A DNA stretch of 44,829 nt from Escherichia phage VB_EcoS-Golestan, in the sequence record NC_042084.1; one strand, given 5' to 3'. This document shows, in pieces, positions 9,677 to 30,219 of this stretch; position 1 is the first letter of the stretch, and every line of letters starts with the position of its first letter. The position numbers and the translations under genes are program-made. Below the pieces are notes generated by a model. It made no database searches. It was not told the origin of the DNA and worked only from the letters and a program-made list of their open reading frames with translations.

Positions 9677-10068
9677 GTTTCGCGCTTGATGTCTCTAAGT
9701 TCGTGGAAAAGGCGAAGAAGAACCCTGAGAAGGTGATGCGTCAGGTGTCTATCAAGCTGTTTTCCGCTATTATAAAGGCGAGTCCGGTAGATACTGGTCG
9801 GTTTCGCATGAACTGGATGGCATCTGGCGGTACTCCTGCTTCCGGGATTACGGATGCTACGGATAAATCAGGAAACACAGCAACCGGAAACGCTACAAGT
9901 TTCGTGCTGAAAGCCACCGACTGGCATGAGTTCACGCTGACAAATAACCTGCCGTATGCACAACGGCTGGAGTATGGCTGGTCGCAACAGGCCCCGCAAG
10001 GATTCGTCAGGACTAACGTGTCCCGCTTCCAGCAACTCATTAACGAAGAAGCTAGCAAGGTGAGATGA
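9673..10068 (+). CDS. Tail completion / neck protein (position-based)
   Basis: 131 aa; ATGA overlap; within connector block. Confidence 0.45.
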   Translation: MSFALDVSKFVEKAKKNPEKVMRQVSIKLFSAIIKASPVDTGRFRMNWMASGGTPASGITDATDKSGNTATGNATSFVLKATDWHEFTLTNNLPYAQRLEYGWSQQAPQGFVRTNVSRFQQLINEEASKVR

Positions 10069-24391: not shown

Positions 24392-24903
24392 CTGGTAAAT
24401 TTCCTCGCAAGATACGTTATTTCTTCTTCACAAAGTTCATCGAGGTCGTTAGATACAAATCCTCTGGAGAATGTTCTGCTAAATTTTAAACCAGCTTTAT
24501 CATTATCCCCAGCGCACACCCAATCATACGGCAGAAGTGACATTTGCCGCCGTAGGTCAGTTGGTATATTCGACCCAAGTGCGCTTACGGCATTGAACCC
24601 GCAATTCATCAAAGCAACAGCTTTAAATATGCTTTCGGTAACAAATACTGTCCCACTTTCAGGAAGGTACTCCAACCCCCATAAACACGGCCTTGTTGTT
24701 CGGGTAAAGTACCGCGCGTCTTTAGGGTTTTTACAGTTCTTTTCAGCATGTGGCTTGTAATGCTGGTATCCTCGTAGCCTACCGTCAAAACCCCACAAGT
24801 AGAATGTAGCAACGCCAGGGGCTAAGACTACCTGGAGACGGTCTGCGTCAAAACCTCGTGACAGCAGATGCGCCTTAAGTAGTAACTCCTCGCCATCCAT
24901 CAT
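24388..24903 (-). CDS. Toprim-domain protein (DnaG-type primase catalytic-core-like)
   Basis: 171 aa; VTESIF (conserved Glu) and GDNDKAG (DxD) Toprim-like motifs. Confidence 0.45.
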   Translation of the reverse strand: MMDGEELLLKAHLLSRGFDADRLQVVLAPGVATFYLWGFDGRLRGYQHYKPHAEKNCKNPKDARYFTRTTRPCLWGLEYLPESGTVFVTESIFKAVALMNCGFNAVSALGSNIPTDLRRQMSLLPYDWVCAGDNDKAGLKFSRTFSRGFVSNDLDELCEEEITYLARKFTR

Positions 24904-26324
24904 TTCTTACCTCGTCTCTTCATGTAATTAAGCAACTCTTCCTGTACCGATTTCTTCTCGTCAGTACGTGTGGCAACAACCTCGTCCAGCGTGTCTTTAG
25001 CGACGATGTGATAGAGGAACACCGGTCGCTCGTGCCCCGCTTGTTTCTGGCGGACCGGGCCTATACGCTCAACAACCTGCAAATAGTGCTCAAGGTTCCA
25101 GCCTTGCGAGATGAACGCCAGATGATGACCCCCGTCCTGTAAATTCAAACCATGCCCGGCTGACGCAGGATGCACGCATAAAATCTCGATTTCCCCACGG
25201 TTCCACGCTTCCATCTGCTTATTACCCTTCGCACCTTTGGCAAATGCCTGGGCCTGCGGGAATCGCTTAAGGATGCGCTCCAGTTCGTGCTTGAACTGAT
25301 AGGCCACCAGTAACGGCGCGCCCTGTAACTCTTCCACAATGGACTCCAGTGCGTCCAGTTTCGTGTCGTGCACTTTCTCCCAGTCTTTGGTTGCTTCGCC
25401 GTCAGGGCCCGAAACATACACGGCACCGGAGGCAATCTGCAGACACTTCGACGTCTTCGCCGCAGCGTTAGCCGCTTCAACTTCTCCGCTTTCCAGTTCC
25501 GCGAATAGCTTCTCCTCCATATCGATGTACGCCTGACGTGCTTTCTTCGGCAGGTCGATTTCAACCGGCACGATAACAGGCGCTTCACAACCGAACCACT
25601 CGGCGGCGTCAATCGTCAGACTGATGTCCTTCATCTTCTGGTGAATCTCGTTATCTGCACCAGGGCGGGCGTGATATTCACGTGCCATCGCAGATTTTCC
25701 TTTCTGTACCGAATTAAACCAGCGGTCGGTGAATGCTGTATACGACGAACCTAGGCGCTCGCCAGCGTCGATAAACCAGTTCTGGCCCCACAAATCCTTG
25801 AGGCCGTTTGGTGACGGTGTACCAGTCAGGTTAATAAAACGCTTAACCCTTCCGAAAGCCACTTTACTAAGCGCCTTTGCACGCTTGCTACCACCTGAAC
25901 GGCTGCGGAATGATTTAAGCTTCGTGCTTTCATCTGCAACGATAACCGTAAAAGGCCAGTCGTCTTTGCCGTAGTAGTCAATCAGCCACTCGATAACCTC
26001 ATAGTTCGTGCAAACCACGTTAGCATCTGACTCCAGCGCCGCGATGCGGCGCTTCTCTGAACCAGTCGCATCTACAACACGCAGACATGGGAATTGCCAT
26101 TTCTCTTGCTCTGCAGGCCACGTACCAGACGCAACCCGCAGCGGGGCGAGGATTAACACGCGGTCGTCATCATTAAGTTGGCCGTTTCGGAACAGTCGGT
26201 TTAATGCCCACAGTACGCTGCCAGTCTTCCCAGCGCCCATGCTTGCCCATATGTTGCAGCGATGGTGCCGCAGCATGAACGAAGTCATGAGCTTTTGGTA
26301 CTCACGCCTTTGAAACTTACTCAT
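24900..26324 (-). CDS. SNF2/SF2-family helicase
   Basis: 474 aa; Walker A MGAGKTGS, DExx box VIVADEST, helicase C-terminal region. Confidence 0.8.
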   Translation of the reverse strand: MSKFQRREYQKLMTSFMLRHHRCNIWASMGAGKTGSVLWALNRLFRNGQLNDDDRVLILAPLRVASGTWPAEQEKWQFPCLRVVDATGSEKRRIAALESDANVVCTNYEVIEWLIDYYGKDDWPFTVIVADESTKLKSFRSRSGGSKRAKALSKVAFGRVKRFINLTGTPSPNGLKDLWGQNWFIDAGERLGSSYTAFTDRWFNSVQKGKSAMAREYHARPGADNEIHQKMKDISLTIDAAEWFGCEAPVIVPVEIDLPKKARQAYIDMEEKLFAELESGEVEAANAAAKTSKCLQIASGAVYVSGPDGEATKDWEKVHDTKLDALESIVEELQGAPLLVAYQFKHELERILKRFPQAQAFAKGAKGNKQMEAWNRGEIEILCVHPASAGHGLNLQDGGHHLAFISQGWNLEHYLQVVERIGPVRQKQAGHERPVFLYHIVAKDTLDEVVATRTDEKKSVQEELLNYMKRRGKK

Positions 26325-27246
26325 TTACCGCCCCCATGAATGCCTTTATAAATTCAGCAGCTACTTGCGGGACGATGGCATTGCCGTAACCGCGCAATCG
26401 TCCCACTCTGGCGGGTATCCCATCAGCCAGCGGGAATGTGCCGGGTTCAACTGGCCTGAATTTTCCATCCCGGCATCCGAGCCAGTCTGCCTCTGACCAG
26501 AAGCCGTGATGCGGATTGGTCGCGATATTTTCAGTCCCTGCTCCGTTGAGTAGTCCAGCCTGTCGAAAGTCCGGTCCTTTCCGTCCTTGCGAATCACTGT
26601 CTCTCCGCTCCCTCTGTAATCGTTCGCGGTCGGCGTCGCCCATGCCGTCATCGCGGCGGCCCACCCCAGTTTGTTCGGTTTCGTCCTGCCGTCTGTGCTG
26701 CGCATGTTCACGTCGTTTGTTATCAGTGATACTGCTGGCGTGGGCCAATCTATGCGCGCCGAAGAAAAGTCGGTCGCGTTTGTGCGGTGCGCCGACGCTA
26801 CAAGCTGGGAGTACGGCAAACCCGACGGCGTAGTTTTCTCCTTCCAGGTGAGTTTGTAAATCGCACATCCACGATTTTGCAATTGCTGGCGCAACCTGCT
26901 CCCCAAAGAGGACTGGAGGGCGGCACTCGCTGATGAGGTCGAGGAACACAGGTGCGAGGTGTCTCGGGTCGAACTGTCCGAGTTGCTTTCCCGCTGCGCT
27001 AAACGGTTGGCAAGGCGGGCTTCCCGTCCAGAGAGGCGCATCTTCCGGAACTCCCGCAAGTCTGAGCGCGAGAGGCCAGCCGCCGATACCAGCGAAAAAA
27101 TGACACTGGGTGAATCCGTCGAGGTCTTCTGGCTTAACTTCAGTAATGCTTCTTTCATCTACAACTCCAAAAGGTATGTGACCCTGTTTTATTAATTCAC
27201 GCAGCCACGCGGCTGCGCCTTTATCCCATTCGTTGTAATAGTTCAT
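26317..27246 (-). CDS. DNA (cytosine-5)-methyltransferase, orphan
   Basis: 309 aa; motif I FAGIGG, motif IV PPCQPFSAAGK, GEQV, C-terminal GNAIVP; no adjacent restriction endonuclease. Confidence 0.85.
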   Translation of the reverse strand: MNYYNEWDKGAAAWLRELIKQGHIPFGVVDERSITEVKPEDLDGFTQCHFFAGIGGWPLALRLAGVPEDAPLWTGSPPCQPFSAAGKQLGQFDPRHLAPVFLDLISECRPPVLFGEQVAPAIAKSWMCDLQTHLEGENYAVGFAVLPACSVGAPHKRDRLFFGAHRLAHASSITDNKRREHAQHRRQDETEQTGVGRRDDGMGDADRERLQRERRDSDSQGRKGPDFRQAGLLNGAGTENIATNPHHGFWSEADWLGCRDGKFRPVEPGTFPLADGIPARVGRLRGYGNAIVPQVAAEFIKAFMGAVNE

Positions 27247-27434
27247 TTTGCCACCAGAACTAACTCTTTACGCCCGAACGCCGTAACGTTACCGGTTACA
27301 TCTTCGATAACCAGTTTACCGTTCGACTCGACGTACACCGTATCAACGGCAACAGGCCGACGGGTCTTAACGTTGAAAATCATGTCGCCAGGTACGATGT
27401 CACGTGCTGGTTTGCGGTCATATTCGTGTTTCAT
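27243..27434 (-). CDS. Hypothetical protein (63 aa)
   Basis: First ORF downstream of family-2 promoter C; ATGA overlap with the methyltransferase gene. Confidence 0.4.
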   Translation of the reverse strand: MKHEYDRKPARDIVPGDMIFNVKTRRPVAVDTVYVESNGKLVIEDVTGNVTAFGRKELVLVAK

Positions 27435-27464
27435 TTCTCAATTCCTTATATTGTTGGTGTAGGA

Positions 27465-27752
27465 CTAACTATAATAGTTCGCTATTAGGGCGTCAACCTG
27501 TTTAAACGAACCAACGACAAAAACATTAGCACCACGCTTACGCATCCGCTCGTGCTCCCGTAACTGGTGTGGATCCGGCTTCGTGCTTTCGTCTTTCTTT
27601 ATCTCGACGAACCAGATGACGCCGCCGGGGAGAATTACCAGCAGGTCAGGGGCGCCGGAACGTCCTTCGTAGGAAAGTTTACGAACGAGGCCACCAATGG
27701 CCTCGAATCGGTCTTTTGCGTATTTCTGTATTTTGCCCTCAGGCGTACTCAT
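27465..27752 (-). CDS. VRR-NUC domain nuclease (PD-(D/E)xK); start set at ATG 27752
   Basis: PDLLVILPGG...FVEIKK motif; RBS GAGGGG before ATG 27752; ORF-track GTG start at 27788. Confidence 0.55.
   Translation of the reverse strand: MSTPEGKIQKYAKDRFEAIGGLVRKLSYEGRSGAPDLLVILPGGVIWFVEIKKDESTKPDPHQLREHERMRKRGANVFVVGSFKQVDALIANYYS
27468..27496 (-). promoter_or_regulatory. Family-2 promoter copy C (TTGACG-N17-TATAGT) with inverted repeat AATAG-N4-CTATT in the spacer (27473-27486)
   Basis: Near-identical to copies D and E; upstream of the methyltransferase/helicase operon. Confidence 0.55.
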
Positions 27753-27831
27753 CCACACACCCCTCACGTTTCGTATGCGCAATACCACAGCGCGGACAGA
27801 TCCGGCGGTCTTCTTCGTAGAACCAGTAAAT

Positions 27832-27963
27832 TTTCATTCCAGCACCCACAGATAAATTGTTACTAACATACCTAATACGGCAACCATCATGCCGTATTGA
27901 CCCTCGTGACAGTAGACACCGGCGGCGAATCCCGCCAGTACCGCAATAATCAGTTTACTTGGC
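27832..27963 (-). CDS. Small hydrophobic peptide (43 aa) overlapping the 3' end of the polymerase gene
   Basis: Hand-translated MPSKLIIAVLAGFAAGVYCHEGQYGMMVAVLGMLVTIYLWVLE; no clear RBS. Confidence 0.2.
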
Positions 27964-30219
27964 ATATCGCTTCATCTCCGCACCTTCAGCTACAAGAGGG
28001 AACCCCTCCGCCCATTCCGGCAATTCGCACATCAACCGCTCAAGCTCTGCTACATTGTATTCCGGTGAATCTGGTGTCTCGCAGATAATCTCATCGTGTA
28101 CGTGAAGTACAATCGGGTAGCCGTTTGCTTCTACGTTCAGCAGGGCATTAGCCAGCAAATCACGGCACAATGCCTGAGTGCAGTTTTCCACCAGTTTACC
28201 CGAGTAGGTGTACTGGAACCCCCACTGACGGGTTAGCTGATTTTCGCCCTGGTACTTAATGCGCACGTTAGTAGACACCTTCCCGTCTCCATCTGTTTCT
28301 TTCGACACGCTCAACCCGACGCCCGGATAAGACATAACGCGACCCGACGGCAACGTCATGCGCAACCACCAACCAGCGACTTTGTTGCCGTTGTTGTCCG
28401 TTTCTACGTTACGCGAAAACTTAACACCCCGCGGTCCCGCAGTGAACTCTTTACCTGGATTGCGGATAGCTGCCATAGCGGCGTCTTCAATATCCCGCCA
28501 GAACGCTACTGTTTCCGGGTGGGACTCGCGCCACATGCGCTTGATAGCGTCACAGGTACGCCACACTTTCTTATCAAGAATATACGATGGTCGGTCATCC
28601 TTTTCACCTGGCCGCGGAGGTCGCTTGGCTTCCTGAATACGTGCCCATTCATAGCCGCGTGCAGTAGCGGCCCATATATGGTCGGGGAATGTCCCGTCCA
28701 TTGTTTTTGCCATATCAACCAGGTTTAAGCCGAGGTTCTTAGCAAACTGAACGAAAGCACCGACACCACCAGCATAGCCAAGGCCCAATTCACATGCTTT
28801 ACCTATCTGGCGTAGGTCACTACGGCTTTCGAGAATGTAATCAGGGTCCATGCCGAACATCTTACCCGCGGTTACACAGTAAATATCCAATCCCGCACGG
28901 AAGGTATCGAGAGCGGTTTCTTCTCCCGCCAGCCATGCCAACCCGCGACCTTCAACGTTAGAGTAATCAGCTACGACAAACTTACGCCCGGCTTCCGGTA
29001 TGATGCAGCTACGCACCGTCGATGCCGTTAGCTTGGCTACATCGAAACGGCGATGCGCGCGGCCTTTAAACAACAGGTCGATTCCGTAGGACAATGGGTG
29101 TGTTACTCTCCACCAGTCCTTCTCTGACATCCAGTCATAACGTACTTTCTTCTTTTTATTCTTCGGGTCGTCATGATAGTACCCGCGCGCCAGGTTCTGT
29201 GGCTGGAAGCCTTTACCCGCGAACCGTAACGTACGCTTTGCCCCACCGTACTGGATACAACCGCGGCGTCGGTCGTCCGACGAGCGGCCTAACAGCAGCG
29301 GGTTATATTTCGTGGACGCTGTTGACGCGGCCCCGAGGCGCATTTCGATAATCGTGCGGGCGTCGTCAGGTAAATCATCATCGGCCAGCAGGTCATTCAG
29401 CGTCGACTTCTGTGCGTTGTGTATGCGGTGTGCGGGGGCCAGTTCACGTAGAATAGGCAGAAAGTCCTTACCGGTAAGCGAGCCGCCGTATTTACGTTGA
29501 GCTTCTTCCTGTAACTGTGCCTTGTGCTTCTCTACGGCTTCAATCGCGGCTTCCGCCAGTGCGACGTCAACCTTAAATCCGCGGTCGTTGATTAACTGGT
29601 CAAGTTCCAGTACACGGTCTTCGAACTCGGAGTTACCCCAACGCGGCAGCTTATGGAAGACTTCACGCATCGCAGTGATGTCGCTCACGGCGTACCTGAT
29701 GAACATCGCCCACTCGTCAGGGTGAGTTTCTGCGGTGTAGCGGCGGATTTTGTAGTTCTTCGGCGTCGGTTTAGAGAAACGCTTAATCAGAGCCTTGCCG
29801 CGTTTATCTTTCGCGTTGTCGGCGGATACACCCAGCACTTCGCACAGCGCATCAAGAGAACCCGGTAGCGCGTGACGAAACGCCCAAATCATAGTATCAA
29901 TGGTGTTGCTTACCGGAATATCAAAGCCCCAGCAGTGCTTCATGATGAGCCTATCGAAAAGTCCACCGTTGTGCCATACCATCTTAATGCGACTGTTTGG
30001 CTTAACCAGACGGCGTAGAGCGCGGTGTAAATCCACGGGCATATCACTGCCGTCGGTGCAATCCCATACCTGTACAGGCTCGTCGTCAAAAGCGTAGGTA
30101 CAGATAAGCACTTCGGTAGTTGGATGCTCGGCGTAAGCATAGGAGCCGACTTTCTTCAAATCGGCTTCGGAGAATGTTTCAAAGTCTAAGTAAAGCAATG
30201 TGTTCATAGTCTGTACCAC
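27955..30219 (-). CDS. Family A DNA polymerase with 3'-5' exonuclease domain
   Basis: 754 aa; Exo I LYLDFETFS; motif A DYSNVE, motif B RQIGKACELGLGYAG, motif C VHDE. Confidence 0.85.
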   Translation of the reverse strand: MVQTMNTLLYLDFETFSEADLKKVGSYAYAEHPTTEVLICTYAFDDEPVQVWDCTDGSDMPVDLHRALRRLVKPNSRIKMVWHNGGLFDRLIMKHCWGFDIPVSNTIDTMIWAFRHALPGSLDALCEVLGVSADNAKDKRGKALIKRFSKPTPKNYKIRRYTAETHPDEWAMFIRYAVSDITAMREVFHKLPRWGNSEFEDRVLELDQLINDRGFKVDVALAEAAIEAVEKHKAQLQEEAQRKYGGSLTGKDFLPILRELAPAHRIHNAQKSTLNDLLADDDLPDDARTIIEMRLGAASTASTKYNPLLLGRSSDDRRRGCIQYGGAKRTLRFAGKGFQPQNLARGYYHDDPKNKKKKVRYDWMSEKDWWRVTHPLSYGIDLLFKGRAHRRFDVAKLTASTVRSCIIPEAGRKFVVADYSNVEGRGLAWLAGEETALDTFRAGLDIYCVTAGKMFGMDPDYILESRSDLRQIGKACELGLGYAGGVGAFVQFAKNLGLNLVDMAKTMDGTFPDHIWAATARGYEWARIQEAKRPPRPGEKDDRPSYILDKKVWRTCDAIKRMWRESHPETVAFWRDIEDAAMAAIRNPGKEFTAGPRGVKFSRNVETDNNGNKVAGWWLRMTLPSGRVMSYPGVGLSVSKETDGDGKVSTNVRIKYQGENQLTRQWGFQYTYSGKLVENCTQALCRDLLANALLNVEANGYPIVLHVHDEIICETPDSPEYNVAELERLMCELPEWAEGFPLVAEGAEMKRYAK

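Follow-up and report, generated by a model that had tools for sequence, protein, structure and literature searches.

A phage C5 cytosine methyltransferase gene that probably encodes a second protein in its +1 frame

The methylase gene and the reading frame nested in it

The genome of Escherichia phage VB_EcoS-Golestan (NC_042084.1), whose 44,829 nucleotides (nt) are together referred to here as the window, carries on its minus strand a gene for a C5 cytosine methyltransferase homologue of 309 amino acids (aa) that starts with ATG and is called open reading frame (ORF) A in what follows. Wholly inside ORF A, on the same strand and beginning about 88 nt into it, lies a second ORF in the +1 frame, ORF B. 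A sequence-only reading of the window, made without database searches, had presented A as an orphan methylase with a short, highly charged variable region, and it missed this nested ORF of 265 aa. Here we report that both ORFs are kept open by selection, that purifying selection alternates between frames A and B along the DNA, and that the two-genes-in-one arrangement is found in about 130 relatives among phages and prophages. The locus is a widespread and apparently undescribed dual-coding methyltransferase gene.

The assignment of A to the C5 methyltransferases, already proposed from the letters alone, is borne out by profile comparisons. A matches Pfam PF00145 with 62.6 bits (cut-off 22), the match being confined to aa 68-186, and PHROG 363 ('DNA methyltransferase') over its full length (E 8e-89). 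Alignment of the A-family profile with M.HhaI by hhalign, for which the M.HhaI reference sequence was checked against PDB entries, gave a probability of 98.5% and covered motifs I and IV-VIII. Direct reading against the C5-methylase consensus (I, FxGxGG; IV, PCQ; VI, ENV; VIII, QxRxR; X, GN[AS]V) recovers the canonical motifs I, IV and X that had been claimed for A, and also motifs VI and VIII (Table 1). The conserved parts of A are the catalytic core (I, IV, VI and VIII), a short 'FW.DADWL.CRDGK.RP' element and the motif X helix. In the hhalign comparison, motifs II-III of M.HhaI correspond to a 35-residue gap in A, and a motif II/III-like segment seen by eye, YYNEWDKGAAAWLRELI (A aa 3-19, window 27190-27240; compare M.HhaI YSNEWDKYAQEVYEMNF), precedes motif I. 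The N-terminus of A thus appears to be permuted, with this segment placed before motif I and aa 50-83 holding motifs I and IV, which would explain the partial Pfam match. Solved structures match A at motifs IV-VIII only. A structure model of A built from a shallow alignment had a predicted local distance difference test score (pLDDT) of 44, and a Foldseek search with this model still returned C5 methylases.

ORF B matches PHROG 1008 (E 2e-59), a family distinct from that of A. In GenBank records of K1 phages, B is annotated as a 'putative Mte8-like protein' that overlaps a 'C-specific methylase'; the PHROG match gives the label 'DNA methyltransferase' only, and this label probably derives from the location of B. 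From its start, B comprises a leader, a helix and beta-hairpin, a set of W-x-T-P modules and a C-terminal motif (Table 1). The C-terminal motif, QLNPAHSRWLMGYPPEW, is the sole part of B that hhalign aligned to M.HhaI, at residues 273-291, exactly motif IX (KLHPRECARVMGYPDSY), in a match that is not significant (E 0.3). Distant tblastn matches to B begin at B aa 97. Peptides specific to frame B include LTWKEK, DWPTPAVSLITNDVNMR and WLMGYPPEWDDCAVTAMPSSR. A Foldseek search of PDB with a model of B gave no meaningful match.

Table 1. Features of the A/B locus (positions in the window; AF2, AlphaFold2; dN/dS, ratio of nonsynonymous to synonymous substitution rates)
Feature	Coordinates	Strand	Basis
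ORF A: C5 cytosine methyltransferase homologue, 309 aa	26317..27246	-	ORF list, PF00145, PHROG 363, hhalign to M.HhaI
A motif I region HFFAGIGG (FAGIGG aa 51-56; region aa 50-56)	27079..27099	-	direct reading; A-type constraint
A motif IV PPCQPFS (PCQPFS aa 78-83; catalytic Cys79)	26998..27018	-	direct reading, hhalign
A motif VI variant FGEQV (GEQV aa 115-118)	26893..26907	-	direct reading, hhalign
A motif VIII GAPHKRDRL (HKRDR aa 155-159, variant)	26767..26793	-	direct reading, hhalign; dN/dS A 0.17, B 1.77
'Charged variable region' of A, aa 166-248: stop-free spacer in A, W-x-T-P modules in B	26503..26751	-	dN/dS, phase differences, stop counts
A motif X GNAIVP (GNAI aa 288-291)	26368..26385	-	direct reading; dN/dS A 0.17, B 1.49 over aa 283-309
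ORF B: nested +1-frame ORF, 265 aa; PHROG 1008; 'Mte8-like protein' in K1 phages	26361..27158	-	ORF list; 0/2000 synonymous shuffles
GGAG Shine-Dalgarno-like motif, 6 nt upstream of B ATG (27156-27158)	27165..27168	-	motif + ATG in homologues (+1 frame 44/57, +2 frame 1/57)
B leader, aa 1-75, sequence dictated by A, predicted disordered	26934..27158	-	dN/dS B 1.4-1.6; AF2 pLDDT <50
B helix aa 76-96 and beta-hairpin aa 97-123 (GCAIYKLTWKEKTTPSG...)	26790..26933	-	AF2 pLDDT ~80 for hairpin; both frames constrained at A121-143
B W-x-T-P modules: WPTP aa 138, WATP aa 173	26511..26750	-	1 to ~9 modules among relatives; K1G has one block fewer, L073 nine
B C-terminal motif QLNPAHSRWLMGYPPEW, resembles C5-methylase motif IX	26403..26453	-	nearly invariant in alignment; dN/dS B 0.29, A 0.68

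Selection alternates between the two frames

The openness of each frame was compared with shuffles that preserve the other. In the forward direction the synonymous codons of A were permuted, so that the A protein and its codon usage were kept, with 2000 shuffles for each of five diverged genes. The open run in the +1 frame measures 265 codons in the window, 230 in K1G, 348 in epsilon15, 274 in Pseudomonas phage 5399 and 353 in Erwinia phage Gungnir39, and it was equalled in 0, 0, 3, 23 and 0 of the 2000 shuffles, respectively; the +2 frame in these A-preserving shuffles is as expected by chance. When B was preserved instead, frame A had 0-1 stops where 6-13 were expected, and a stop-free A arose in 0-3 of 2000 shuffles. 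The charged middle shows this most directly, A being stop-free there in all 57 viral-contig and phage genes against an expectation of 2.7 stops per gene. In the window, 24 single-nucleotide changes in this middle would stop A yet stay silent in B, and single substitutions that stop one frame and are silent in the other exist for both frames. A is also full-length in 76 of 80 relatives from bacterial chromosomes.

The two frames also differ in where amino acid changes are tolerated (Table 2). Ratios of nonsynonymous to synonymous substitution rates were estimated by the Nei-Gojobori method from a nucleotide alignment made without regard to frame, over 24 pairs that do not overlap phylogenetically; an alignment guided by the A protein, which is biased against constraint in B, gives the same pattern. 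The +2 frame has values of 1.2-4.1 across all segments.

Table 2. Constraint on frames A and B along the gene (segments in A aa)
A segment	dN/dS A	dN/dS B	Constrained frame
1-29	0.09	1.61	A
30-120	0.15	1.40	A
121-143	0.36	0.49	both
144-165 (motif VIII)	0.17	1.77	A
166-250 (charged middle)	1.03	0.42	B
251-282	0.68	0.29	mostly B
283-309 (motif X)	0.17	1.49	A

The segment that had been described as a charged variable region takes on a different meaning in this light. Its richness in Arg, Asp, Glu and Gln is real (42% of aa 166-248, with 11% hydrophobic residues, as against 20% and 32% in the N-terminal domain of A), but its reading as a variable or target-recognition region is not supported: the ratios in Table 2 and the distribution of differences over codon phases show that it evolves as coding sequence of B. 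Per-phase differences in the middle amount to 0.374 at position 1 of A codons (position 3 in frame B) and to 0.215 and 0.205 at the other phases; the flanks of the middle have the usual excess at A position 3. The charged segment is neutral in A and is coding sequence in B, and its composition is a shadow of the B motifs, as when B 'WATPTANDYRGSG' reads out of frame as A 'MGDADRERLQRER', or when a relative with nine 'SWPTP' modules carries nine 'QLADA/QLADT' shadows in A, which is still open. Between motifs VIII and IX, no target-recognition domain under selection in the methylase frame was found (dN/dS 1.03; 11% hydrophobic).

The arrangement extends far beyond the window. Both ORFs occur in 54 of 58 usable IMG/VR loci, in which A spans 264-449 aa and B scales with it to 220-424 codons, in all 76 full-length relatives from bacterial chromosomes, which belong to many phyla, and in each of the eight annotated phage records that were checked, among them epsilon15, phages of Pseudomonas and Erwinia and a cyanophage. 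K1G likewise carries both, as do an environmental podovirus, an EBPR siphovirus and a P. aeruginosa prophage. In epsilon15, Pseudomonas phage 5399 and Erwinia phage Gungnir39, the frame of the B-like tblastn match differs by 1 (modulo 3) from that of the annotated methylase coding sequence. A search with B over 5.8 billion proteins returned 6084 relatives, full-length coverage extending down to an identity of 57%, and an exhaustive search put the family at 10,028 representatives of 50%-identity clusters at E<1e-3. In very distant phages B is conserved at 30-45% identity and keeps specific motifs. At every locus inspected (about 140), B lies inside an A gene, and no case of B outside an A gene was found among them. 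Imbalances between the two ORFs are limited to L046, with one stop in B, and to L019 and L032, in which A is cut at 82 aa (in L019 by a 1-nt indel). The stop at L046 (L046:1571-2629) is a single in-frame one that splits B into 203 and 149 codons and leaves A intact (390 aa); this may reflect either a natural B-null allele or a mistake in the sequence.

Several relatives carry additional domains within this framework. In an enterobacterial prophage with an adjacent integrase (L071:2501-3994), B runs stop-free into a PF05869 Dam N6-adenine methylase domain, giving a B-Dam fusion of 497 aa, and A (331 aa) is intact. At L072:2350-4185 an insertion in frame B encodes a real-looking Zn-finger/HNH-type domain, and A stays open through about 290 extra codons (612 aa in all); at L029:1495-2934 an A of 480 aa encloses a classic HNH ORF in its +1 frame. 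The fusion, the insertion and the HNH ORF indicate translation in frame B at these three loci.

Other variants were noted beside these. One B representative (P0137) is fused to a DUF2800/PD-(D/E)XK nuclease. The methylase gp44 of EBPR siphovirus 2 (L076:3-2039; 832 aa) has an intein-like insertion that ends in ...VVHN directly before the catalytic CQPFS, and the nested B ORF resumes downstream of it. A single-frame ancestor or fusion of the two proteins was sought among 147 diverse B representatives and rejected as a candidate: PF00145 occurs in two of them, both sporadic indel variants with different junctions.

The surroundings of the gene in the window are those of a replication module. The neighbours of A are a Toprim-like protein, an SNF2 helicase, a 63-aa ORF, a nuclease annotated as VRR-NUC and a family A DNA polymerase. 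Inspection of these neighbouring genes found no restriction endonuclease gene adjoining A, in agreement with the earlier description. By homology and position, ORF A is an orphan C5-methyltransferase homologue within the phage replication module, for which self-protection against restriction is a reasonable putative role. The start ATG of A overlaps the stop of the upstream 63-aa ORF (ATGA, 27243-27246), and the 3' end of A shares 8 nt (26317-26324) with the beginning of the SNF2 helicase ORF; these overlaps at both ends suggest translational coupling along the replication operon.

The window represents a Kagunavirus-like E. coli phage, and its methylase region is 100% identical to those of BEU33, BEU35 and vB_Eco_K-02. 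ON001686.1 (vB_EcoS_SCS44) has the same length (44,829) and gene coordinates, and across 4.4 kb (24600-29000) it differs from the window by 52 substitutions and 0 indels, with 0 substitutions at 26488-26778, the dual-coded middle. These differences are without bearing on the dual-coding finding.

One product or two, and the role of B

We consider dual coding of the locus highly probable. As a whole, the best explanation would be a dual-coding gene with two separately translated proteins, to which we assign a probability of roughly three in four. Protein A would consist of the catalytic core, a stop-free spacer whose amino acids are dictated by frame B, the short conserved element and motif X. 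Protein B would begin at its own GGAG-ATG start with a leader of about 75 residues set by A, followed by the helix, the hairpin, the W-x-T-P modules and QLNPAHSRWLMGYPPEW. A Shine-Dalgarno-like motif with an ATG is present in the +1 frame of 44 of 57 genes and in the +2 frame of 1 of 57, and the signals stand at non-identical positions, being GGAG-N6-ATG in the window, AAGGAG-N8-ATG in epsilon15 and AGGAG-N7-ATG in other lineages.

A number of observations weigh against this picture or parts of it. We found no proteomics or ribosome profiling showing translation of B. B has no homologue of known function in Pfam, NCBIfam or PDB sequence profiles, and its resemblance to motif IX is without statistical significance (E 0.3). 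The AF2 model of B, built from a 77-sequence alignment, has a mean pLDDT of 51, with a confident hairpin at 101-123 and helix at 76-96 and low confidence elsewhere. The openness of the B leader is weakly beyond chance per gene (0.49 stops expected), and the sequences in the selection tests are related, so that the counts are not fully independent. A itself holds, besides motif X, a degenerate motif-IX-like stretch (KFRPVE...FP) and may be self-sufficient, and that B works with A is something we purely infer.

Tentatively, B may work together with A by supplying or modulating DNA recognition, because B lies in an A gene at every locus inspected, varies in its number of modules, carries a motif-IX-like element and accompanies a methylase that has no selected recognition sequence of its own, and also because B is fused to a Dam domain in one prophage. 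The A-B pair would then methylate phage DNA and protect it against host restriction. A more specific and slightly more doubtful version is an obligate two-subunit methyltransferase, in which the recognition subunit, composed of motif IX and between 1 and about 9 W-x-T-P modules that can be exchanged, would be encoded in the +1 frame of the gene for the catalytic subunit; the number and type of modules would set the specificity, or multispecificity, and let phages evade diverse restriction systems.

About equally possible as the A-B partnership is that B is a translated nested gene with a function unrelated to methylation, for instance in anti-defence or as a replication accessory, that was overprinted for space or co-regulation, A being self-sufficient with a disordered loop. 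The lack of detectable homology between B and characterised proteins or solved structures fits such a function, as does the partial disorder of B, which is frequent among overprinted viral proteins; A, moreover, keeps motif X and its degenerate motif-IX-like stretch under A-type constraint. An unrelated protein sits less easily with the embedding of B in A at all of the roughly 140 loci, with a motif-IX-like element at the expected position of B (hhalign E 0.3), with the fusion of B to another DNA methylase domain at L071, or with an A that is without selected sequence at the site of the recognition domain.

Expression of a single protein by a double programmed frameshift is improbable. It would join A1-165 (motifs I-VIII) by a +1 shift to B138-254 (modules and motif IX) and return by a -1 shift to A283-309 (motif X), and indeed the frame-specific blocks of constraint stand roughly in the order of such a product, with the motif-IX-like C-terminal element of B just upstream of motif X of A; in the rare natural variant P0121, loss of a single nt fuses A1-165 exactly to B137-265. 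The borders, however, do not look like shift sites: among 57 genes no conserved site was found at the A-to-B border, and a slippery heptamer X_XXY_YYZ at the B-to-A border is not conserved, being present in one gene. Both frames are open over the whole length, an openness that frameshifting does not need, and B possesses its own Shine-Dalgarno-like motif and ATG. B is furthermore constrained upstream of motif VIII of A (A121-143, 0.49), so that joining all blocks would take four shifts, and the single-frame variants are sporadic and differ in their junctions (P0121, P0129, P0162).

That A is a lone orphan methylase whose charged segment is the recognition region, with the +1 ORF a by-product of composition, is very improbable, for although A is a genuine PF00145 homologue whose ORF is intact and records such as ON001686 annotate A alone and not B, the charged segment is constrained in frame B and not in A (0.42 and 1.03), the length of the +1 ORF of the window is equalled in none of 2000 shuffles, B is conserved with its specific motifs at 30-45% identity in very distant phages and B has a start signal.

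Implications and relation to known systems

If the locus is read as dual-coding, thousands of phage and prophage annotations of 'DNA cytosine methyltransferase' may cover half of the content of their loci, the B family comprising more than 10,000 clusters at 50% identity. Prediction of specificity from the annotated protein would be misleading, since its 'variable region' is not under selection as protein sequence. The locus offers a clean natural case of long-lived dual coding with partitioned constraint that should be useful for the study of overlapping-gene evolution, and gene callers that disallow nesting on the same strand may take it as a warning. Were B the recognition partner of A, the pair would represent a new methyltransferase architecture that matters for anti-restriction by phages and, the locus being carried by Kagunavirus K1 phages, for candidates in phage therapy. 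Should the obligate two-subunit reading be true, this would be a widespread unrecognised DNA methyltransferase architecture and among the longest interleaved dual-coding regions known to us in bacterial viruses.

Among characterised enzymes, A is closest to the C5 methyltransferases (PF00145; M.HhaI), with which it shares motifs I and IV-VIII, the PCQ cysteine, the GNAIVP motif X and, with many phage methylases, its orphan status. It differs from them in having no selected recognition domain, in the II/III-like YYNEWDKGAAAWLRELI before motif I and in EQV for ENV in motif VI. ORF B corresponds to existing labels, the 'putative Mte8-like protein' of K1G, K1H and K1ind (GU196277-81) and the 'DNA methyltransferase' of PHROG 1008 being the same ORF; it is on record since about 2010, as an annotation label only. 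In the full-text literature searched, which lacks most subscription journals, we found no published description or analysis of the A/B overlap (dual coding, selection or distribution), and 'Mte8' occurs as a label only, in one paper.

Nested genes whose products cooperate have a well-known example in the lambda Rz and Rz1 spanin genes, one of which lies in the +1 frame of the other and whose products act together. This nested arrangement is cited in PMC9409062. A and B resemble this pair in that one ORF is contained complete in the other, in the +1 frame of the same strand, and each has its own start signal. They differ from it in that B covers 81-94% of its host gene and that constraint alternates in at least six blocks, and cooperation between A and B is something we infer.

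Methylase genes of actinophages contain out-of-frame insertions of a 'hidden HNH endonuclease', the ShiLan domain (Arsenault, Gosselin and Gogarten 2025, PMC11855218). There too, the methylase ORF is stop-free across DNA that codes for a real protein in another frame, as is also seen at L029 and L072. The ShiLan insertions are sporadic and mobile, whereas B is a resident feature of nearly every relative examined and no endonuclease; the window lacks such an insertion. The insertions at L029 and L072 represent a ShiLan-type phenomenon in phages of Gram-negative hosts.

C5 methyltransferases made of two polypeptides are also established. M.AquI consists of alpha and beta subunits, the second polypeptide bearing motifs IX and X and being separately encoded. 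Complementing fragments of M.SssI form a split C5 methyltransferase as well (PMC3404938). In the case described here, motif X belongs to A, B is encoded in an overlapping frame of the same DNA and any assembly of the two is hypothetical; what the split enzymes provide is a precedent for catalytic (I-VIII) and recognition parts that exist as separate polypeptides and assemble with each other.

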